From Escherichia coli (GTDB lineage Bacteria; Pseudomonadota; Gammaproteobacteria; Enterobacterales; Enterobacteriaceae), in assembly GCF_050320075.1 (NCBI RefSeq), contig NZ_CP190022.1: a stretch of 64,000 nucleotides of DNA. One strand, given 5' to 3'. Shown here one piece after another: positions 5,140-56,083 of the stretch; the stretch's first letter is position 1; the number at the start of each line of letters is the position of its first letter. The position numbers were made by a program, and so were the translations under genes. Under the pieces are notes generated by a model. It searched no databases. It saw only the letters and a list, made by a program, of their open reading frames with translations, and was not told where the DNA came from.

Positions 5140-6120
5140 ATGCGTATCTTTGTAGATGACGGTTCTACCAACATCAAACTGGCCTGGGTTGAAGACGGTG
5201 CAGTGAAAACGTTAATTAGTCCGAATAGTTTTAAACCGGAATGGTCTATGACGCTGCAGGGACTGACTGATGCCACTATACCCGCTTCCGCAAACTATGA
5301 GATTGATGGAGAGAAATACAGCTTTGATCAATTGAGTCCGGATGCAGTGCGCACCACAGAAACGCGTTATCAGTACAGCGACGTTAATGTGGTTGCTATT
5401 CATCATGCGTTGATGCAGTCAGGTATTGCTCCGCAACCTGTTGATATTGTTGTGACTTTACCTTTAGGTGAGTATCTGGATGAGAACGATCAGCCAAATC
5501 TGGCTAATATCGAACGTAAGAAAAATAATGTCAGACGAGCTGTAACAGTTCAGGGGCGTGAAAACTTTACCATTCGTAAAGTCAGTGTCTTGCCTGAGTC
5601 CGTGCCTGCCGGTTTTGACGTGCTGAAAGATCTGAATGATCTGGAGTCGCTGTTGATCGTTGATATCGGTGGAACGACCCTTGATATTGCACATGTCCGC
5701 AGCAAAATGTCCGGTTTCACAAAAACTTATTGTGACCCCAAGACAGGCGTTTCCATCATTACTGAAGCAGTTAAGCATGCGATGGATGTGAATGTGAGTA
5801 CACGAACCAGTTCTTATTTTGCAGATCGTCTAATCCAGGGCCGGGATGACAATGAATTCCTGACTCGTTATATCCCGAATGCAGAACAGCGTGAGCAGAT
5901 CCTGACAGTATTATGTGACCGGGAAAAAAAACTGCAGCATCGTGTGGCGGATTCAGTAGGACGCTTTGCTGGTTTTACTCATGTTATGGTTGTTGGCGGT
6001 GGTGCCAGCCTTGTGGCTGGGGCAGTAAAAAAAGCGACAGGAGTGGGTGATAACCGTTTCTTTGTCAGTGACAATCCTCAGTTCGATCTGGTGTTGGGAA
6101 TGATGGCAATGAAGGGATGA
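5140..6120 (+). CDS. parM: Actin-like partition ATPase ParM/StbA
   Basis: Translation MRIFVDDGSTNIKL...DIGGTTLDI...VMVVGGGA matches ParM/StbA actin-fold motifs; GAGG RBS 8 nt upstream of ATG 5140 (track ORF begins at GTG 5128). Confidence 0.9.
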   Translation: MRIFVDDGSTNIKLAWVEDGAVKTLISPNSFKPEWSMTLQGLTDATIPASANYEIDGEKYSFDQLSPDAVRTTETRYQYSDVNVVAIHHALMQSGIAPQPVDIVVTLPLGEYLDENDQPNLANIERKKNNVRRAVTVQGRENFTIRKVSVLPESVPAGFDVLKDLNDLESLLIVDIGGTTLDIAHVRSKMSGFTKTYCDPKTGVSIITEAVKHAMDVNVSTRTSSYFADRLIQGRDDNEFLTRYIPNAEQREQILTVLCDREKKLQHRVADSVGRFAGFTHVMVVGGGASLVAGAVKKATGVGDNRFFVSDNPQFDLVLGMMAMKG

Positions 6121-6545
6121 GTATGGCTGATAATCGTAAGTGCTCTTTTTATATTTATCCGGAACGAAATGCAGCTGATCGGGTGGCTGACAGGTTTCTT
6201 GAAAAATTGCCTCAGAAAGAACGTGGTCGGGCAATGCGGGCCATGATGTTGTGTGGTGCTGCATTGATGAAACAGGATGAACGATTGCCGTTCCTGATAG
6301 CTGAATTCCTGACAGACAGCACGTCTATGCAGGATATTCAACGAATTATCAGTAGTACGCTACCACAACAGGAAAATGGTGAAGTTGTTCGTTTGCTGGA
6401 GGCATTTCTGCAGTCTGCCGGTAATAATGCAAAAACGATCCTGCCTGCGGTTGATTCTGCTTCGCAAGAAATATCTGCTCCAGTCGATCAGAATCTCCTG
6501 GAAACAAGAAACAACATTAAGAACTTGTTTCCGGATGATGAATAA
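6117..6545 (+). CDS. parR: Partition adaptor ParR/StbB (ribbon-helix-helix centromere-binding protein)
   Basis: ATG overlaps parM stop (ATGA at 6117-6120); product resembles ParR/StbB and sits in the expected position downstream of parM. Confidence 0.8.
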   Translation: MSMADNRKCSFYIYPERNAADRVADRFLEKLPQKERGRAMRAMMLCGAALMKQDERLPFLIAEFLTDSTSMQDIQRIISSTLPQQENGEVVRLLEAFLQSAGNNAKTILPAVDSASQEISAPVDQNLLETRNNIKNLFPDDE

Positions 6546-26542: not shown

Positions 26543-26734
26543 GGGGATTCCTCCATAGATGAATGGATAAATTTCGGGATTAAGTCGGGTGGCATGAATG
26601 CGAATCAGCGCCGGTAATAACCGGACAGGAATGAGTTCAACAGGACATTTTCACAGAGAAGAGCGTGGGAGACAGGTACAAAAAAACCGACTGGTGAGGC
26701 CGGTTTTTTTGCGATTCCGGGGTGGAGTTGGTGG

Positions 26735-26766
26735 CTCTGACCGGAGGAAGTCTCTTTTCAACTAAC
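26735..26766 (+). repeat. Direct repeat A (about 32 bp, CTCTG-CCGGAGGAAGTCTCTTTTCA-CTAAC)
   Basis: Repeated with two mismatches at 26969-27000, 234 bp downstream. Confidence 0.8.
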
Positions 26767-28187: not shown

Positions 28188-28811
28188 ATGCAGGAACATA
28201 TTGATTATCAGATTGAGAAATATCAGTTCAGGGCCAGGAATGAGTCTCCGCGACTGATGCGCCAGTGGGCAGATGTCATGCGTGAATGCCGTGATACCGG
28301 AGCAGGAGCCAGGGAGCGGCTGCGGATTGCCTTACTTAATGTTGATTATGTGACCAGTTTTGAGCTGCCGTTTCGTCTGCTGTTAACCCGGACACCGCAG
28401 ATGATTGACAGCATGCGGCGGGAATGGCAGCTCAGCCAGAAAAAAGTCGTCTTCAATGAGCGGCAGCGGGGATGTGTATACAGTCTGCAGAATGACTTAT
28501 CCGGCGTGCCGGATAGCTTCAGTTACAGTCTTGCGACGCGAATACGGCGGATGGACTGCTATGGCATGACGACGCGTTGTTTTACTGATATCGCCGGGCA
28601 GGTTAAAGCCCCGACGGCACGGCTGAAACTAGCGCTGGAAAGCGGGTTGCTGGTAACGGCACTGGATGGCCTGTTCTGGCTGGGAACTCAGCGAATTGCA
28701 GCTGATGTGCAGAGACTGCGTCAGTCAGGTATGGTTATAGTCACCCGGGAAGTTGAGGTATCAGACTCCCTGACCGGAACCACCAGACTGGTTTCTGCCT
28801 ACACACTTTAA
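28188..28811 (+). CDS. Hypothetical protein (207 aa)
   Basis: First of three same-strand ORFs in an AT-rich block; no family recognised. Confidence 0.5.
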   Translation: MQEHIDYQIEKYQFRARNESPRLMRQWADVMRECRDTGAGARERLRIALLNVDYVTSFELPFRLLLTRTPQMIDSMRREWQLSQKKVVFNERQRGCVYSLQNDLSGVPDSFSYSLATRIRRMDCYGMTTRCFTDIAGQVKAPTARLKLALESGLLVTALDGLFWLGTQRIAADVQRLRQSGMVIVTREVEVSDSLTGTTRLVSAYTL

Positions 28812-28898: not shown

Positions 28899-29354
28899 AT
28901 GCGAGATAAATCAGAAGTATTAACCGGAGCGCAGAAAAACAGATTTGGTCTGATTCTTTATATTATACTATTATCAGTTGTTTATATATTGATAACAAGA
29001 CTTAATCTCACAACCACATATTATTCGCTGTATTCATCTCTGGATGAGAATTCACAGGTGACGGAGTATTTTATAATATCCATAGCTACCTTTCTTTTTC
29101 TGGCGGCTTTATGTTTGTTCTTCATTTATTCTTTCTTTAAACGGAAAAGAGTTGTCGGGAAATTACTTCTGTGTATTTATATTCTTTATATATCACACTA
29201 TGCTATCACTTTTGTTTATTGTCTTTATGTTGTCGGTGCTGAGTGTATGGCAACCGGAAAGATTGAGCATATTTTGATTGATATTATTATAGCCATGCTT
29301 TCTCTTTCGTATGTTTGCCTTTCCGGGAGGGCAAGACATATTTTTGTTAACTAA
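28899..29354 (+). CDS. Hypothetical small integral membrane protein (151 aa, about 4 TM helices)
   Basis: Strongly hydrophobic, AT-rich codon usage; directly upstream of the transferase-like gene. Confidence 0.5.
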   Translation: MRDKSEVLTGAQKNRFGLILYIILLSVVYILITRLNLTTTYYSLYSSLDENSQVTEYFIISIATFLFLAALCLFFIYSFFKRKRVVGKLLLCIYILYISHYAITFVYCLYVVGAECMATGKIEHILIDIIIAMLSLSYVCLSGRARHIFVN

Positions 29355-29532
29355 ATGTATTCTGAGTGTTTTATGGTTATGAGGCCTTCATCGGGTTATG
29401 CGAATAATCTGGTTCGGGGAGCAGTTGCTGTAAGCACAGAACCTGATAATATGTAAATCCTGCTGGACAGGGTAGGGTATTTTTGTGAACTGTTTCATAT
29501 AAATATCCATGCGTTGAAATGATCGTCTGTGT

Positions 29533-31089
29533 TTGTACAGGAAAATGACTGGCGTGTCTTGTATTAAAGAAAAATCAAAATATACTTTTGAGAGAGCAAA
29601 ACAGTTTTATTTTATGTTGTGGTGTAAAGAGTCACTGATTTATCTGTTGTTTTCTGTGCTTGTTACATGGTGTTGCGGATATACAGTGAAAAACACCCTG
29701 GGGAATGTGCTTATATTGTTCCTGATGTTGTTGTTGGGGCGGCAGAATGTTATTTCAGCAACGTGTGTCTGTATCTTTCTTTTGTTAAGTGCATTCTATG
29801 CTCCGGTTGGGATGATTTACGGAAAAATAAACAACAGTTTTATTGCGTCTGTAATGCAGACAAATCTAAATGAGGCAGGTGAATTTATCACAGGCATACC
29901 TGTTCTTTATTTTATTGTTTCACTGATTATTGCTGCTTTTACATTCTGGTTCTGGCGTAAGCGTGATAAAAGCCACCAGGGATTTATCTTTCTGTTGTTC
30001 TTTATCGTATTGTCAGTAAATGCATGGCCAAAACGTATGGTTACGAATGTAATGACAGGGATAGCTGAAACCAGAGAAGAAATGATGCGATATGAATCGC
30101 TGAAACACAATCAGAAAGATTCATGGGATATTGTGAATGTGGAGAAGAAATATAAAACCATAATTATCGTAATTGGTGAAAGTGTCAGACGGGATTATCT
30201 TTCTGTTTATGGGTATCCTTTGCCGACAACACCATGGTTGAATTCTGCTCCGGGTATATTTATTAATGGGTATTTCTCCGCAGCTCCGAATACGATAGGT
30301 TCACTCAGCAGAACACTGACTCTTGATTACACTGAAACAGGTAATCCGGGTAATAATATTGTTACGCTTGCCAGAAAAGCCGGATATGAGACGTGGTGGA
30401 TATCAAATCAGGGCTCTTTAGGGCGACATGATACGCTGATTTCTGTCATCGCCGCCAATGCGGATAAGAAATATTTTCTTAAGGAAGGGAGCTCTTCTTC
30501 CCGTCGCATTGATGATGAAGATATGCTTCAGTATGTCAGGGAAGCTGTTAATTCGTCTTCTCCAAAAGTGATTTTCATTCATATGCTGGGGTCCCATCCT
30601 AATCCCTGTGACAGACTTTTTAATGATGCACAGCCGTTCAGGGAATTATTCGGAAATAAAGTATCCTGTTATTTATCAACATTGCTTAAGCTGGATCGGT
30701 TTCTTCAGGCAATTTATAACATGACGACAGAGCATGGCGATGATTTTGCCATGCTGTATTTTTCTGATCATGGGCAATCCGTCACTTCAGACAGCACCCC
30801 TGTGCATCATGCGCCAGGTTTGCGTTCGGGATACGATGTACCTCTCATGATGATGGCCAGTGATATTACTGAGCACCACCTCAATCATGTGCATATCAGT
30901 GCACGTCGTTTTCCCGAGATTTTTCAATGGATCACAGGGATACAAACCAAAAATCTGCCGTTAAGTTTTTCTTTGTTACAGAATGATTTCGCTGAAAGTG
31001 TTTCTGTATTCAATGGTGAACGTGACGTTCCGGTAATGTCTTTGCCAGAAGAGCCGATACTGACCGGAAATGCTGAATCAGAAAAATAA
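29533..31089 (+). CDS. Phosphoethanolamine-transferase-like membrane protein (N-terminal multi-TM domain + sulfatase/alkaline-phosphatase-type catalytic domain, EptA/MCR-like architecture)
   Basis: Five predicted N-terminal TM helices then sulfatase-type motifs (IIVIGESVRRDY, HMLGSHPNP, YFSDHGQS); alternative start at ATG 29545. Confidence 0.65.
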   Translation: MYRKMTGVSCIKEKSKYTFERAKQFYFMLWCKESLIYLLFSVLVTWCCGYTVKNTLGNVLILFLMLLLGRQNVISATCVCIFLLLSAFYAPVGMIYGKINNSFIASVMQTNLNEAGEFITGIPVLYFIVSLIIAAFTFWFWRKRDKSHQGFIFLLFFIVLSVNAWPKRMVTNVMTGIAETREEMMRYESLKHNQKDSWDIVNVEKKYKTIIIVIGESVRRDYLSVYGYPLPTTPWLNSAPGIFINGYFSAAPNTIGSLSRTLTLDYTETGNPGNNIVTLARKAGYETWWISNQGSLGRHDTLISVIAANADKKYFLKEGSSSSRRIDDEDMLQYVREAVNSSSPKVIFIHMLGSHPNPCDRLFNDAQPFRELFGNKVSCYLSTLLKLDRFLQAIYNMTTEHGDDFAMLYFSDHGQSVTSDSTPVHHAPGLRSGYDVPLMMMASDITEHHLNHVHISARRFPEIFQWITGIQTKNLPLSFSLLQNDFAESVSVFNGERDVPVMSLPEEPILTGNAESEK

Positions 31090-31110
31090 TAAAGATTATT
31101 TATGACCGAG

Positions 31111-31140
31111 CTCAATGCCTCATGTGTATGAGGCATTGAG
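31111..31140. terminator. Bidirectional hairpin terminator between the transferase-like gene and the convergent 80-aa ORF
   Basis: Perfect 13-bp stem CTCAATGCCTCAT-GTGT-ATGAGGCATTGAG followed by CGTTTATTT. Confidence 0.6.
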
Positions 31141-31181
31141 CGTTTATTTCAGGCTGACACTGTTTTCAGCCCATACCTGGA

Positions 31182-31424
31182 TCAGTGAATATGCTGACCT
31201 GTTTTTTCGCGAATATCAGCCCCCTGTAATTGTATCAATATACCCTCTCCGTTGAGCATCAGGCTGTCCAGTGAATGGATCCCACTCCTCCTCATCAGTT
31301 CGTAGCAGAGTGTACTCAGCATGGCAAGTGCAGCTTCTGATGATTTACAGTGTGTATTCAGGAGGGTAAAAAATTGTTCAAAAACATCCGGGTTTATACT
31401 GGTGCTTTGATATTCGTTACTCAT
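31182..31424 (-). CDS. Hypothetical small protein (80 aa from ATG 31424)
   Basis: GGAAGGAAA RBS 7 nt upstream of ATG 31424 (track ORF 31182-31544 has an unlikely N-terminal extension); no family recognised. Confidence 0.45.
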   Translation of the reverse strand: MSNEYQSTSINPDVFEQFFTLLNTHCKSSEAALAMLSTLCYELMRRSGIHSLDSLMLNGEGILIQLQGADIREKTGQHIH

Positions 31425-31608
31425 AGTATTTCCTTCCAGGTCATTATTACTTCCAGATTTAACATGATGTCTGTAACCATAAAATAATGAACGTGTTCCG
31501 GGAATCCTTGCCGTGTAGTTTCCCGTAAAAATACTGTTGTGCATTACATGTCATTAGGTGGAAACCGATTGTGGCAGACTGAAAATCGATTAGAATAGCG
31601 GCGGGCGC

Positions 31609-31902
31609 TTGAGGCTGTATGCTGAAAGCGTTTTGTGGACGGCATGCAGCAGAAAGCCCCAGGCGATTTTTTTATCAATCAACCCAGGGCCCACTGTAAT
31701 GCCTCAACAACATTATAGTAGCCCGATGACGGCCGAAAGGCAATGGAGGGGCTGCGATGCCACAACGAACGTTTTTAATAATGTTAATCGTCGTCTGTGT
31801 GACGATACTGTGTTTTGTCTGGATGGTGAGGGATTCGCTTTGCGGATTTCGTATCGAGCAGGGAAATACAGTGCTTGTGGCAACGTTAGCCTACGAAGTT
31901 AA
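31609..31902 (+). CDS. pndC: Overlapping translational-coupling reading frame of the hok-family module (mok/PndC-like)
   Basis: 97-codon ORF overlapping the toxin ORF in another frame, as in hok/mok and pndA/pndC. Confidence 0.55.
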   Translation: MRLYAESVLWTACSRKPQAIFLSINPGPTVMPQQHYSSPMTAERQWRGCDATTNVFNNVNRRLCDDTVFCLDGEGFALRISYRAGKYSACGNVSLRS

Positions 31903-31909
31903 ACGTTAA
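31757..31909 (+). CDS. pndA: Hok/Gef-family type I membrane toxin (50 aa, MPQRTFLIMLIVVCVTILCFVWMVRDSLCGFRIEQGNTVLVATLAYEVKR)
   Basis: Not in the 60-aa track; found by reading: GGAGGGG RBS, ATG 31757, TM helix followed by the conserved hok-family C-terminal segment; downstream GGCGGCAGG-AAAT-CTGCCGCC hairpin. Confidence 0.85.
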   Translation: MPQRTFLIMLIVVCVTILCFVWMVRDSLCGFRIEQGNTVLVATLAYEVKR

Positions 31910-32067
31910 CGGGCAACATGGCGGCAGGAAATCTGCCGCCGGATTGTTGCGAAAGCAAACCTCAATGCGCCCTTTTTTACCTGGATTTCTGCAGCGCGTT
32001 TCAGCATAGCATGCAGTTCTGTGCTGATCCTTGCTTCCAGTCGGGCAGTTTGTGTTGCTGATGGCAT
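31906..32067 (-). CDS. Small ORF (53 aa, MPSATQTARLEARISTELHAMLKRAAEIQ...), ribbon-helix-helix-like N-terminus
   Basis: Not in track; AGGAAG 9 nt upstream of ATG 32067; stop overlaps the pndA stop on the opposite strand; downstream of the excA terminator; N-terminus resembles RHH / DUF1778-type antitoxins but no partner gene present. Confidence 0.3.
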   Translation of the reverse strand: MPSATQTARLEARISTELHAMLKRAAEIQVKKGALRFAFATIRRQISCRHVAR

Positions 32068-32222: not shown

Positions 32223-32873
32223 TTAAAATACTTCTGCAACAGGAACACCGGCAACTTTTTCCCACTCTTTAACCCGATACCGAATCATCTGCGGGAAACG
32301 TTCCTTGTACTCATATCCACGTGCAGCCATGGTGTGCATGGTGTTGGCCAGCGTCCTTGATGAGATGCCGGAGATTTCCAGTGGGATCATCGGCAGACTC
32401 ACATATGTAGTGTGGATTTCCAGCTTGCCGTCTTCAGCAACCGTGCGGGTAAAGTTGTGAATATCCAGACCAATCACATCCATCACATTGTTTGGGTAAA
32501 TGCGCACATACAGCATGGTGCCGTTTTTAATGTCGATCCCGAAATAACAACTCTTCGAGAATGACAGTTGCTCGTAATCGCTGGTCGGCGCAAAGAGACA
32601 GCTTTCTTTTATCTGCTTAACAACCTGCTGGATTTTCTTTTTCTTCGCTCTGGTTCTCAGATATAGCCAGAGTGGGGGAATAAAAAGAAGAAAATAACAT
32701 CCATATGCCAGAATAAAAAGGCTTGTTGAATTCGTTAGTTTATCATCTAATAAATATGATGTATAAGCTGTTGCGTATAAAGCTAAGCACGGAATGCCTA
32801 ATAAAAAATAAGCGTTGCGGGCCAAGTGGTAATATGCCCACCAGGAAGGATATCTGCTTTTTGTTTTGTTCAT
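32223..32873 (-). CDS. excA: Inner-membrane protein in the entry-exclusion position (ExcA-like)
   Basis: 216-aa protein with two N-terminal TM helices immediately downstream of traY; followed by a hairpin terminator (about 32165-32200). Confidence 0.5.
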   Translation of the reverse strand: MNKTKSRYPSWWAYYHLARNAYFLLGIPCLALYATAYTSYLLDDKLTNSTSLFILAYGCYFLLFIPPLWLYLRTRAKKKKIQQVVKQIKESCLFAPTSDYEQLSFSKSCYFGIDIKNGTMLYVRIYPNNVMDVIGLDIHNFTRTVAEDGKLEIHTTYVSLPMIPLEISGISSRTLANTMHTMAARGYEYKERFPQMIRYRVKEWEKVAGVPVAEVF

Positions 32874-32961: not shown

Positions 32962-35127
32962 TTATTGTTTTATTCCGTCTTTATCATCTCTATTAATATT
33001 TTTCAGTTTTTCTTCACGAACGCCAGGTGTTCTGCGCATATTGGTATTACCTCCGGCAATAATATCTTTGACTGAAGAAACCATATTCCCCAGCATATTA
33101 ACACCGTCACGCCCGCCCAGAAAATTAATTACATGGTCAGGCAGATAAGCCTGAAGTGCAAAAATGGCCGCAACCAGCGTGGTACAGGCTCGGGCATAAA
33201 TCATCAAAAATCCCGCCATGCTGAACACGCCCGTCACAGAATTTATCTGGACATTCATCAGCGCAGCAGCAAACAGCGCATTCAGGATTGTGCCGCCGGC
33301 CACGATGGCGACCGATGCAAAAAAGAATCCGAACACCATCAGCAGCGGTCTGATCATGCTGTCTATCAGGTAGATGTAACCGTAAGCGGCCCGGCTTCCC
33401 CGGTCCTGACTTGTTCCCAGATGGGTGGCGGCCCACAGGGGGCCAGCAGCACATCCAATCAGTACGCTGAGTATCCAGTTGCCGATGCCGGTCATCCAGA
33501 AGATAAACGGAATAAACGGCAGGTAAATGGATAACGAAAAACCGGCACAGAACAGCAAAAACAGCAGGAAGTAGAGCGGTGGTGCGGATGCTTCCAGAAA
33601 AGCCTTTGCGGCGTCAGATAAGCCGCTGACGGCATTGACCAGTCGGCCAAAAACGGAGTTGCTGCCGGCAGTTGAAAGCACCCTGACGGTGGTATAACCC
33701 GCCCAGATGGTTTCGGTTGTGACCATGGTGTAATCACCAATGTTTTTCATTTTTATTAGCGGATTTAGTTGGTCCGAGGTGGTTCCAGTTCCTGAATGTA
33801 TGGTTGCAATTTGATTGGTAAATAACGTCAGGTCATTCCCTAGGAGTTTTAACAGGGCTGATTGAGGATTCTGTGTATTAGATGCCTGGTATTCACTGGC
33901 TGAGGTGGCTGTTCCCAGTGCAGGTGTATATGGTGAGTTTTGCAACTGTGCCTGGTAAGCCCCCTTGACTTCCTTCAGGAACTCCGTATCCCCGGCTTCG
34001 CCCAGTGACGAGACGCCACTCACAGTAGGAGCGCGGTTGGCCAGGTCTTCCAGTCGCTGGTTGGCGGTGGCAAAGGTCTGGTACCAGGCGCCCAGGGCAA
34101 CCCAGCCGTAGGTGGTCAGGTAGGATTTCAGCTGCTCCCTGCGCTCAGTTTCTGCGTTATCTGCCGGCAACGCCTTCTGCACCGTTTCTTCATACCGGTT
34201 GGCAGCCTTCTGAATACGGCTTTCAATATCCGGCAGGTTGCCGTTACCCGTGTCGCGTCGGGTCCGGTACGCTGACACAAATTCCTGCGCCGCGCTGTCC
34301 AGGTCACGGAGCATGGTATCCATGGCGGAGCGCTGTGCCGTCAGAACCCCCTGATATTCCGTTTCAATGAAGGGATTGAAAAAATGGGCCAGCGCGGACT
34401 GCTTGTTACTGCCGTTTCCTTTCACGGAGAGACTCACACTCCCGCAGGTGGCGCTGCCATTTGAGACGGTGACGGTATATCTGCCATTCTCTGTCCGTGA
34501 GGATTCGCTCATGGGCGGCGTTGATGAACGTGCGGTACGGTTAAAGTCATCGAGGCCCGTATTCATGGCGTGTTTGCACAGTTCCATCTCCAGTATTCCC
34601 CGTGCTGCCGTGCGGGTGGAGACATGTACTGGCTGTACGGTCATTGAATAGCCTTCAGCGATGTTTTCTGCCGCTGTCTGAACCATGATATTGGCGGAAC
34701 CGATGCCCATGATGGATGCGCCCCACAGCATGACCAGTTGTGCCAGACTCCAGCCGGAAGCGGTGGGCACAATCATCATAAAACCGCTCACAATACTGAG
34801 CATTCCGACGACGTCCCGTCCGTTGTTAAAGACATTGCCCTGGTGTCCCGTGCGGACAGCATGACGGATACCAATAAACAGAAACCAGACTATCCCCATC
34901 GTGGCGATAATTGCGTTAAACACCATGAACAGGTTGCCAATGATGGTGTTGCTGCTGGCTGTCAGGGGATTTGTGACCACATCACCAAAAATGGTGACCA
35001 GTGCCTGGCGCGACAGGTCATCCGGATTGGTGGCGGCACTCACAATGTCCTGATAGGTGACGAAAGCCTGTGCAGGTACGGCAGCCAGCGCCAGACCTGC
35101 ACTCAGTGCTCTGGGTATGATTTTCAC
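32962..35127 (-). CDS. traY: Polytopic inner-membrane transfer protein TraY (DotA-like)
   Basis: 721-aa protein with signal-like N-terminus, central soluble region and many C-terminal TM helices; position before excA as in IncI-type transfer regions. Confidence 0.7.
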   Translation of the reverse strand: MKIIPRALSAGLALAAVPAQAFVTYQDIVSAATNPDDLSRQALVTIFGDVVTNPLTASSNTIIGNLFMVFNAIIATMGIVWFLFIGIRHAVRTGHQGNVFNNGRDVVGMLSIVSGFMMIVPTASGWSLAQLVMLWGASIMGIGSANIMVQTAAENIAEGYSMTVQPVHVSTRTAARGILEMELCKHAMNTGLDDFNRTARSSTPPMSESSRTENGRYTVTVSNGSATCGSVSLSVKGNGSNKQSALAHFFNPFIETEYQGVLTAQRSAMDTMLRDLDSAAQEFVSAYRTRRDTGNGNLPDIESRIQKAANRYEETVQKALPADNAETERREQLKSYLTTYGWVALGAWYQTFATANQRLEDLANRAPTVSGVSSLGEAGDTEFLKEVKGAYQAQLQNSPYTPALGTATSASEYQASNTQNPQSALLKLLGNDLTLFTNQIATIHSGTGTTSDQLNPLIKMKNIGDYTMVTTETIWAGYTTVRVLSTAGSNSVFGRLVNAVSGLSDAAKAFLEASAPPLYFLLFLLFCAGFSLSIYLPFIPFIFWMTGIGNWILSVLIGCAAGPLWAATHLGTSQDRGSRAAYGYIYLIDSMIRPLLMVFGFFFASVAIVAGGTILNALFAAALMNVQINSVTGVFSMAGFLMIYARACTTLVAAIFALQAYLPDHVINFLGGRDGVNMLGNMVSSVKDIIAGGNTNMRRTPGVREEKLKNINRDDKDGIKQ

Positions 35128-54880: not shown

Positions 54881-56083
54881 TCAGAATGTGAACTGCAGTT
54901 GTGCAACGGCACCGTAGTTGTTGTCTGTGCCTGCTATACCCGCCACATCAATATGGACGACATCAAATGGTGAGATACCCAGCCCGGCGGTGAACGCACT
55001 GTCATCATTGCTGGCCAGATTCTGGCGGTAGCCTGCACGTAACTGTGCCCATTTCCAGGCATTAAATTCAGCACCAATGGCAGCAAACTGACGTTTACTG
55101 TCTGATGTGAAGCCACTGGCCGGGGTCAGGTCAACATCCAGTGCTGTAGTGAACATGTCGTTGTGCCAGGAGACACCGGCAGTCACCTGCGGGCGGATCC
55201 TGAAAGTTTCAGTGACACCATGTACCTCTTTGGTCTCAATGCTGCGTGGGATCAGGTTCTGTGCGACCAGACCCAGCGTCCAGTTGTCATCCAGGTCCAT
55301 GCTGGCACCGATATCAGCGTTAATACCGTTTTGGGTGTTGTGGTAACGGTTACCTTTGAATGCGCTGCTGTCATAGTTTTTGATCAGCGTATTGTAGTTA
55401 AACAGGTCAACACGCTGGAATTTTGGTGTGAAGCCCAGTGACCATTTTTGTCCGGCCGTTTCCAGTTCAGTGGCCAGCGCAACGCCCACATCGGTGATCA
55501 GTGCGGCACGGGCAAAAGCCTGTGAGGTCAGTCTGTTTTTATCCACATCCTGGCTGCCACTGTCTGCAATGCTTTCCAGATAGTTCAGGTCGGCATCGCT
55601 GACTTTACCGTCGACGCTGACAGTCCCGAACGTTTTCAGCATCAGTGCAGCAGCGAGGGTATCACCGGGAAGGGCCGCCACAGCAGATGTTCCCACCTGT
55701 GCGTCAGCATGCGTGTGACGGAAGTCCTGAAGTCGCGTCTTCAGACGTGCAGCAGTCTGCGACACGTTGCTCTGACTGTCGATGGCACGATCAAAGGCTT
55801 TCCAGTCATCGCTGATTTTGTCGGCGTTGTCGGCGATATTACCCGGATCGGACAGCTGCGCACCCACGGACGGAAGCAGAAGACTGAAGTCATCTTTTGC
55901 ACCGGATTTTGTCAGCAGTGCCGGGTTTGCCAGTGGGGCCACACCATAGTGAGAGGAGGCTACCCCGGTTCCCCCCATTGCATCATTGCGGGCTTCAAAA
56001 TATGAAGTTGCGGCTGTTGAATTAAAGGAAAATAAAACAGCAGATGCGATGAGAGTTCGGGTAATGTGCATATTCATCATCAT
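54881..56083 (-). CDS. Secreted outer-membrane beta-barrel-like protein of the transfer region (start at ATG 56083)
   Basis: AGGAAA RBS; signal peptide MMMNMHITRTLIASAVLFSFNSTAA; Gly/Ala/Thr-rich with C-terminal aromatic residue (QLQFTF) typical of OMPs; hairpin terminator just downstream (about 54853-54875). Confidence 0.55.
   Translation of the reverse strand: MMMNMHITRTLIASAVLFSFNSTAATSYFEARNDAMGGTGVASSHYGVAPLANPALLTKSGAKDDFSLLLPSVGAQLSDPGNIADNADKISDDWKAFDRAIDSQSNVSQTAARLKTRLQDFRHTHADAQVGTSAVAALPGDTLAAALMLKTFGTVSVDGKVSDADLNYLESIADSGSQDVDKNRLTSQAFARAALITDVGVALATELETAGQKWSLGFTPKFQRVDLFNYNTLIKNYDSSAFKGNRYHNTQNGINADIGASMDLDDNWTLGLVAQNLIPRSIETKEVHGVTETFRIRPQVTAGVSWHNDMFTTALDVDLTPASGFTSDSKRQFAAIGAEFNAWKWAQLRAGYRQNLASNDDSAFTAGLGISPFDVVHIDVAGIAGTDNNYGAVAQLQFTF

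Follow-up and report, generated by a model that had tools for sequence, protein, structure and literature searches.

Plasmids of the I-complex (IncI1/B/O/K/Z) are major carriers of extended-spectrum beta-lactamase (ESBL) and other resistance genes in Escherichia coli, Salmonella and Shigella, and published transposon screens of two such plasmids have each covered a relative of the small gene described here. This gene, an open reading frame (ORF) of 80 codons that we call ORF80, lies at 31182..31424 on the minus strand of a 64,000-nucleotide stretch of E. coli DNA (RefSeq assembly GCF_050320075.1, contig NZ_CP190022.1), hereafter the window. We show that ORF80 is a genuine protein-coding gene that is conserved and held under purifying selection. 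Among the genes of this much-studied plasmid group it is an ordinary conserved hypothetical; it is already catalogued as a hypothetical protein and its homologues were covered by the two screens, and no new kind of system is indicated.

The first described relative is O3K_25992, or Hp25 (80048-80299), of pESBL-EA11, whose protein is identical in R64 and which we confirmed as WP_001291964.1. Transposon sequencing (Tn-seq) on pESBL gave it probabilities of 1.00 for non-essential, 0.00 for maintenance-essential and 0.00 for transfer-required (Yamaichi et al., PMC4288162, Table 2). Hp25 resembles ORF80 in family (a true homologue by profile comparison, with hhalign probability 95% and E = 3.5e-8), motif, size (83 amino acids) and acidity, lies likewise in the excA-trbA stretch co-oriented with excA, and is annotated only as hypothetical. 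It differs in sequence (~30-35% identity) and in placement: it faces pndA tail-to-tail and has an AgrB-like RNA upstream, whereas ORF80 is head-to-head with pnd.

The second is pMS7163B_00550 (gene "530", WP_001363144.1; 52354..52596) of the IncB/O/Z plasmid pMS7163B, 70% identical to ORF80 over all 80 residues without gaps. In TraDIS (transposon-directed insertion site sequencing) of that plasmid it had Log2MPM 12.9, Log2FC -0.78 and a false discovery rate of 0.011, below the thresholds of the study, which called it neither a maintenance nor a conjugation gene (Lian et al., PMC10286972, S1 Table A). It too is 80 amino acids long and head-to-head with pnd, but it is followed by two co-oriented small genes (122 and 71 amino acids) where ORF80 meets a convergent cargo, and it has no 14-bp hairpin downstream. 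Together the screens show that, under laboratory conditions, neither maintenance nor conjugation requires the homologues of either deep lineage; transposon insertions in them had no effect on replication, stability, or surface or standard mating.

The Hha/YmoA family and TomB, which are also small, soluble, largely helical and plasmid-encoded, resemble ORF80 in kind only. One ORF80 homologue lies immediately downstream of an hha gene; ORF80 itself has no PF05321 or TomB similarity, has a predicted beta-sheet, and sits in a window without hha.

Coding status and expression signals

The 80-amino acid frame named in the original prediction, which was made from the letters of the window alone, is borne out as 80 codons plus stop on the minus strand. 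It and the elements around it are as follows.

31182..31424, minus strand, ORF80 coding sequence, 80 codons and TGA; product MSNEYQSTSINPDVFEQFFTLLNTHCKSSEAALAMLSTLCYELMRRSGIHSLDSLMLNGEGILIQLQGADIREKTGQHIH, 9.0 kDa, isoelectric point (pI) 5.4
31431..31437, minus strand, Shine-Dalgarno sequence GGAAGGA, read directly, followed by the 6-nt spacer AATACT and the ATG at 31424-31422
31443..31448, minus strand, putative weak -10 element AATAAT from our own scan, 5/6 matches, with no convincing -35
31142..31181, minus strand, 3′ untranslated stretch of ORF80, holding CTGAAAAC, which is kept in all alleles (alignment A4, columns 600-625)

Alleles of four classes were compared, from the IncI1-type plasmid pHUSEC41-1, two IncK2/Z plasmids and the window, with DNA identity of 68-78%. 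All four have exactly 80 codons, with protein identity of 59-73%. By the Nei-Gojobori method, the ratio of nonsynonymous to synonymous substitution rates (dN/dS) in the ORF80 frame is 0.13-0.22 for most allele pairs and 0.51 for one closer pair; of the five other frames, the antisense -1 frame gives 0.31-0.52 and the remaining four give ~1 or more. Substitutions between alleles number 30-38 at third positions versus 9-17 at second positions. The frame-specific dN/dS, the third-position excess and the fixed length together bear the mark of a translated gene under purifying selection. The earlier description of a compact, real gene of unknown function thus stands, with coding supported by dN/dS and with the identical coding sequence in near-identical plasmids entered in RefSeq, through the Prokaryotic Genome Annotation Pipeline (PGAP), as hypothetical protein WP_000064387.1.

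The good ribosome-binding site that had been noted is also upheld: GGAAGGA ends 6 nt before the ATG, and its AAGGA core is invariant in the DNA alignment of the four divergent alleles. The ORF lister gave a 120-amino acid version beginning with the ATG at 31544. No Shine-Dalgarno sequence precedes that ATG, and in other alleles a 7-nt indel interrupts the added stretch, so the 80-amino acid start is the real one.

The candidate -10 is the sole promoter-like element found for ORF80. The other alleles have an A/T-rich -10-like motif (AATAAT or CAAAAT) at equal distance, and a sigma-70 scan of the minus strand over the ORF80-to-pnd interval gave no promoter. Just 3′ of the stop a consensus hairpin is weakly supported (-6.3 kcal/mol). 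We found no published expression value for the gene, including in the text of the RNA-seq paper on pESBL conjugation (PMC12672017), and no papers using the RefSeq protein accessions as literature query. The author annotation of pSTM709 does not call its ORF80 homologue.

Distribution and protein family

Searching PLSDB with ORF80 by blastn, we found 479 plasmids, 466 of them matching over at least 80% of the ORF length. By tblastn, ~1,400 further plasmids gave a weak match (35% identity), which is the annotated 83-amino acid hypothetical protein WP_001291964.1; this is present in 1,389 plasmids, among them the prototype IncI1 plasmid R64 and pESBL-EA11. A probe spanning pnd and the neighboring gene matches 1,870 PLSDB records. 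On the assumption that the 80- and 83-amino acid types sit on different plasmids, ~1,840 of these 1,870 have one or the other, ~466 the 80-amino acid and ~1,373 the 83-amino acid type, and on the same assumption the family is near-universal in I-complex plasmids. The gene had been called an orphan, a label that does not survive the count of 466 plasmids with the 80-amino acid allele and 1,389 with the 83-amino acid relative; the homology search proposed at the time returned strong conservation, not the lack of it that was to have counted against the gene.

Beyond PLSDB, 18 matches came from 1.84 billion representative proteins searched exhaustively with HMMER, and 202 from a profile search of 5.8 billion clusters. 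The 120 cluster matches listed are all "hypothetical", and every source-supplied name among them belongs to Escherichia, Salmonella, Shigella or Klebsiella. No homologue outside enterobacterial I-complex-type DNA was found in these searches, and the family is essentially absent outside plasmids of that type.

Family members include WP_000064387.1, WP_001363144.1 and WP_001291964.1, and no Pfam or NCBIfam model exists for them. They share a length of 80-85 amino acids, a core motif S-x-E-x-x-L-x-M-L, a G-x-G-I turn and a C-terminal His, all present in ORF80. In alignment A5, E30, L36, G61, I62 and H80 are invariant, and S28, L33, M44, G48, G59 and G68 nearly so. Allelic divergence is deep, with protein identity of 30-70% across the family; by our reading of the alignment, the homologue of one distant locus (L009; loci with homologues bear such labels here) is ~55% identical to the R64-type protein.

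The most informative of the distant loci is an E. coli contig (L010) in which what is left of the C-terminal end of excA is followed by a gene of the Hha family, then by the homologue P0037, a 140-amino acid gene and a relative of the 70-amino acid gene that comes after ORF80 at another locus (L007); all run in one direction, and there is no pnd. The 140-amino acid gene has no homology to the 121-amino acid gene that follows ORF80 in L007. The L010 order, kept in the absence of pnd, suggests that a backbone order of excA, (hha), ORF80 and small genes is old and that pnd is placed variably relative to it. In the same contig a 73-amino acid ORF just upstream of hha (5361-5582, plus strand) has an end that resembles the C-terminus of the window ExcA by eye, unscored. 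The contig appears to be a degraded I-complex-like backbone interrupted by sugar-metabolism cargo.

Another homologue, P0036 (L014, ~5950-6195, plus strand), is a database protein of 64 amino acids; 17 codons upstream of its start stands another ATG in the same frame, with TTAAGGATAACTT before it. It has probably been called too short; the upstream ATG gives 81 amino acids (MLNKEFESCVQTERIDEMANYF...), which fits the family length.

Protein properties and predicted fold

The ORF80 product has a grand average of hydropathy (GRAVY) of -0.16, and no signal peptide or hydrophobic segment is seen when the sequence is read directly. Its pI of 5.4 compares with 4.7 for the R64-type protein, so that both are acidic. 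A first AlphaFold run with 8 close sequences gave a mean predicted local distance difference test score (pLDDT) of 60. A second, with 12 sequences including distant members, gave a model with pLDDT 79 and predicted template modeling score (pTM) 0.60, in which helices are predicted at 12-25 and 29-47 and strands at 49-55, 61-65 and 77-79.

Scans of ORF80 and 12 family members with Pfam, NCBIfam, PHROGs and PADLOC gave nothing meaningful, PADLOC returning sub-threshold noise only (E 0.03-0.04). A sequence-profile search of the PDB gave only designed helical proteins at E >= 0.5, and structural comparison of the model gave no significant match. The domain scans found no helix-turn-helix (HTH), ribbon-helix-helix (RHH) or other DNA-binding domain, and ORF80 does not group with transcription regulators. 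The best fold resemblance is to two small uncharacterised phage proteins, A0A1U9WR47 (Escherichia phage vB_EcoS_ESCO41) and A0A346FIU3, with template modeling (TM) scores of 0.57-0.60 (query-normalised) or 0.72-0.75 (target-normalised); at E 0.5-0.7 and 16-19% identity these are not significant.

Gene neighborhood and the transferase cargo

The window region is 99-100% identical to many conjugative plasmids of E. coli and Shigella, typed IncK2/Z or IncI1/B/O and having the MOBP relaxase and MPF_I mating-pair formation system of the I-complex. The features around ORF80 are these.

28188-28811, plus strand, ECs1377-family helix-turn-helix gene
28899-29354, plus strand, DUF2569 gene
29533..31089, plus strand, phosphoethanolamine transferase of Sulfatase/EptA type, 518 amino acids
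31110..31141, plus strand, perfect 14-bp hairpin with loop GTGT, then GTTTATTT on the plus strand
31182..31424, minus strand, ORF80
31425..31568, spacer from the ORF80 ATG to the pnd -35 box, strongly divergent between allele groups
31603-31909, plus strand, pnd leader and pndA
31906-32067, minus strand, short ORF, apparently a remnant
32223..32873, minus strand, excA
32962..35127, minus strand, traY

ORF80 thus lies in the excA-trbA accessory stretch of an MPF_I/MOBP plasmid, on the strand shared by traY and excA; the layout is the same in L001-L007, L013 and R64. Other residents of this stretch in I-complex plasmids are hha, finQ, a thermonuclease gene and type I toxins. There is no hha and no HEAT-like gene anywhere in the 64-kb window.

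The convergent gene is, as had been proposed, transferase-like. A perfect hairpin does stand between it and ORF80, with a stem of 14 bp where 13 had been counted, a 4-nt loop and a folding energy of -24.6 kcal/mol (z = -4.3 versus shuffles). The further claims that it is bidirectional and shared with ORF80 are not borne out. The T-run GTTTATTT is on the plus strand only; read along the ORF80 strand, the stem runs into TCGGTCATAAAT, with no U-tract, and the terminator scan calls the plus strand alone. In the four-allele alignment the hairpin is present only in transferase contexts (the window and L005) and is missing downstream of ORF80 in the others (L003 and L004). Homology to plasmids without the transferase ends ~25-30 nt past the ORF80 stop, where other genes follow, which marks the junction with a cargo module.

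Downstream of ORF80 in pMS7163B, pHUSEC41-1, p135-2 and pSTEC2018_607-b come small hypothetical genes on its strand, two or three in number (63, 121 and 70 amino acids), which meet a convergent helix-turn-helix gene. All three are missing from the window, where, as in L005, they are replaced by the DUF2569 and transferase genes, downstream of the helix-turn-helix gene. The two cargo genes have 33-40% G+C versus 53% for the whole window. Because the hairpin is confined to transferase plasmids, has its U-tract on the plus strand only and belongs with low-G+C cargo, we conclude that it is the intrinsic terminator at the 3′ end of an acquired DUF2569-transferase unit, not shared by design. The relation of ORF80 to the transferase is one of adjacency only.

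The cargo unit as a whole runs from 28899 to 31141 (plus strand), encoding a DUF2569 membrane protein and a CptA/EptA-like phosphoethanolamine transferase and ending in the 14-bp terminator. The window transferase scores far below the curated cut-offs of all NCBIfam MCR models.

Probable role and alternative readings

The reading that we favor, and hold to be somewhat probable as a whole, is that ORF80 is a stand-alone I-complex backbone gene for a small acidic protein that is a conditionally useful accessory factor. The gene lies in the excA-trbA accessory stretch, co-oriented with traY and excA, and would have pnd and the transferase as neighbors through module shuffling, without functional coupling. 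Its product would be a 9-kDa acidic cytoplasmic protein with a predicted fold of two helices and three strands, from a family restricted to I-complex plasmids, and would act by binding another protein, not DNA. It may serve in host interaction or in competition between mobile elements, and would not be part of the machinery of replication, partition, post-segregational killing or transfer. Kept by selection in ~1,800 sequenced plasmids yet dispensable in two laboratory screens, the gene may have a function that counts only in natural settings, for instance in the gut, in other recipients or where elements compete. A modest residual interest attaches to its wide retention and to the lack of any fold or family that can be recognised. 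For the window, the gene is backbone and not cargo, and no orphan; the hairpin is the terminator of the transferase module; and here pnd calls for no protein regulator.

Several points weigh against this reading. No convincing sigma-70 promoter was found upstream of ORF80 in any allele. Frameshifted and truncated ORF80 variants are present in databases, which shows that loss of the gene does occur at times. The structure model, built from a shallow alignment of 12 sequences, is moderately confident, and the proposed protein-binding mode is drawn from the size and charge of the protein and from the failure to find a DNA-binding domain in it. In addition, pnd is adjacent in both major lineages, head-to-head in the 80-amino acid and tail-to-tail in the 83-amino acid type, which leaves formal room for some link with pnd.

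Among the alternatives, the best survivor, though an unlikely one, is that ORF80 is an anti-defence, fertility-inhibition or inter-element competition factor, useful against particular recipients, phages or co-resident plasmids. In its favor, standard matings and growth of E. coli K-12 do not need the gene, which is nonetheless near-universal and under purifying selection; its divergence to 30-70% protein identity is as expected for genes in conflict, and finQ, the thermonuclease gene and type I toxins are among its neighbors; the best, non-significant fold resemblances are to the phage proteins named above. Against this, there is no PADLOC, Pfam or PHROG match, the protein does not belong with ArdA or the KlcA/ArdB type, and dN/dS indicates purifying, not diversifying, selection. 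The site between excA and trbA is also not the leading region beside ardA, psiB and ssb, judging by gene orders and general knowledge of IncI1 transfer polarity.

Less probable again is a role alongside the Hha/H-NS silencing module of the plasmid, as partner or modulator; ORF80 might, for example, bind Hha or an H-NS-like protein. This idea draws on L010, where P0037 starts 111 nt downstream of a co-oriented PF05321 hha that itself follows the excA remnant, and on pESBL, where hha is on the strand of Hp25 ~1 kb away; a small, acidic, helical protein would be compatible with such a modulator. Immediate adjacency is seen this once, however; R64 and L001 have a different 69-amino acid protein at the hha position, and the window has neither hha nor a HEAT-like gene. 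No family member has TomB/YbaJ or Hha similarity (no match at E <= 5), and there is no structural match.

We give a similarly low rating to a broader proposal, that ORF80 and its 83-amino acid counterpart (ORF83) have a new small alpha/beta fold and serve I-complex plasmids universally as an accessory factor linked either to type I toxin loci or to Hha/H-NS silencing. In one version the factor would be expressed by read-through from the PndB or AgrB promoters and would tune killing, silencing or element competition outside the conditions of laboratory mating. An antitoxin small RNA upstream in two deep lineages, the hha of L010, the missing promoter and the missing fold match are compatible with this proposal and do not demonstrate it.

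Membership of a toxin-antitoxin pair, or origin as the read-through product of a type I antitoxin-RNA promoter, is more doubtful still. In the window the PndB antisense RNA region lies upstream of ORF80 and on its strand, and ORF80 has no recognisable promoter of its own. At dqlB loci of L006 and L009, homologues of 83-85 amino acids lie 150-180 nt downstream of a co-oriented AgrB-like RNA.

L006 4711-4798, plus strand, AgrB-like antisense RNA (RF02891)
L009 220-307, plus strand, AgrB-like antisense RNA (RF02891)

However, in L006 a strong A-run/T-run terminator follows AgrB, and no RNA of this kind occurs in L008, L010 or L014. With type I loci so closely packed in the region, the adjacency could be chance. 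R64-type loci have no adjacent partner ORF of the sort that forms a type II pair. Transposon insertions are well tolerated in both allele types, so that ORF80 is no essential antitoxin. An AgrB-like antisense RNA (RF02891) of a DinQ-like (dqlB) type I toxin locus also occurs in the window itself, at 26678-26765 (minus strand).

The original prediction placed ORF80 beside the pnd promoter region, correctly, and from this suggested that it may regulate pnd. The pnd leader (Rfam sok, RF01794; match 31603-31759) starts 178 bp beyond the ORF80 ATG, and the pnd -35 box is 144 bp from it, head-to-head. This junction is kept in all eight contexts examined of the 80-amino acid lineage (the window, L001-L005, L007 and L013), with ~330 bp between start codons, and it speaks for ORF80 as a regulator of the divergent, hok-family pnd promoter or of neighboring promoters. 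The rest of the comparison goes the other way. Columns 1-205 of alignment A4, which hold the pnd leader and promoter, are nearly invariant, and from CCACAATC onward (the pnd -35 box, read on the ORF80 strand) the IncI1-type sequences part from those of the window type, indels included; conservation of the cassette stops at the -35 box, and the ORF80 5′ region is not within it.

The geometry also varies. In the 83-amino acid lineage (R64, pESBL and ~1,370 other plasmids) the gene is downstream of pndA, tail-to-tail and 71 bp apart, and no pnd was found in the fetched DNA near five distant homologues (L008, L009, L010, L014 and L015, with P0032 and P0035-P0037 among them), so that linkage to pnd is not constant. 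Scans of the acidic protein gave no DNA-binding domain, be it HTH, RHH or another. Control of pnd, as in other hok/sok-type loci, is known to be post-transcriptional, by PndB antisense RNA and mRNA folding (Nielsen and Gerdes 1995, cited in PMC7602700). A pnd::Cm mutant of pMS7163B conjugated at wild-type frequency, leaving the TraDIS hit on pnd unconfirmed, and the ORF80 homologue was no TraDIS hit. Given the cassette boundary, the variable geometry, the acidic protein and post-transcriptional control of hok-type loci, we regard regulation of pnd by ORF80 as very improbable.

Weakest of all is the reading in which ORF80 is no gene and arose by chance, or is conserved as an RNA or cis-acting element; it could appeal to the failure to find a promoter or a known domain and is hardly credible, being effectively refuted by the frame-specific dN/dS (0.13-0.22), with the third-position excess, the exact length at 68-78% DNA identity and the detection by profile comparison of relatives at 30% protein identity also against it.

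Other observations

A promoter-like site directed towards pnd occurs at 31459-31488 (plus strand; TTAACA, 18-nt spacer, AATAAT, 10/12 matches), upstream of the usual pnd promoter; such sites are no commoner in this region than in shuffled sequence. The closest relative of the window, pSTEC2018_553-a (L001, 6758-8351), has three tandem copies of pnd with a 60-amino acid minus-strand ORF in each repeat, while the window has one copy and L002 and L004 have two each. The pnd cassette seems to amplify or recombine readily.

The 53-amino acid ORF at 31906-32067 (minus strand), just downstream of pndA, starts MPSATQTARLEARISTELHAMLKRAAEIQ and has an N-terminal match to the TacA/DUF1778 antitoxin family (PF08681, E 4e-4, just below cutoff). 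At the equivalent position L005 has an intact DUF1778 and GNAT-toxin pair, and the window ORF seems to be a remnant of such a type II toxin-antitoxin pair.

In L013, the accessory stretch that holds the pMS7163B homologue of ORF80 also has a 58-amino acid hypothetical gene, "610" (WP_001054907.1), at 6081-6257 (pMS7163B 55080..55256). This gene has the largest positive Log2FC, +4.69, in the pMS7163B TraDIS table (PMC10286972), which means that insertions there were enriched after conjugation.

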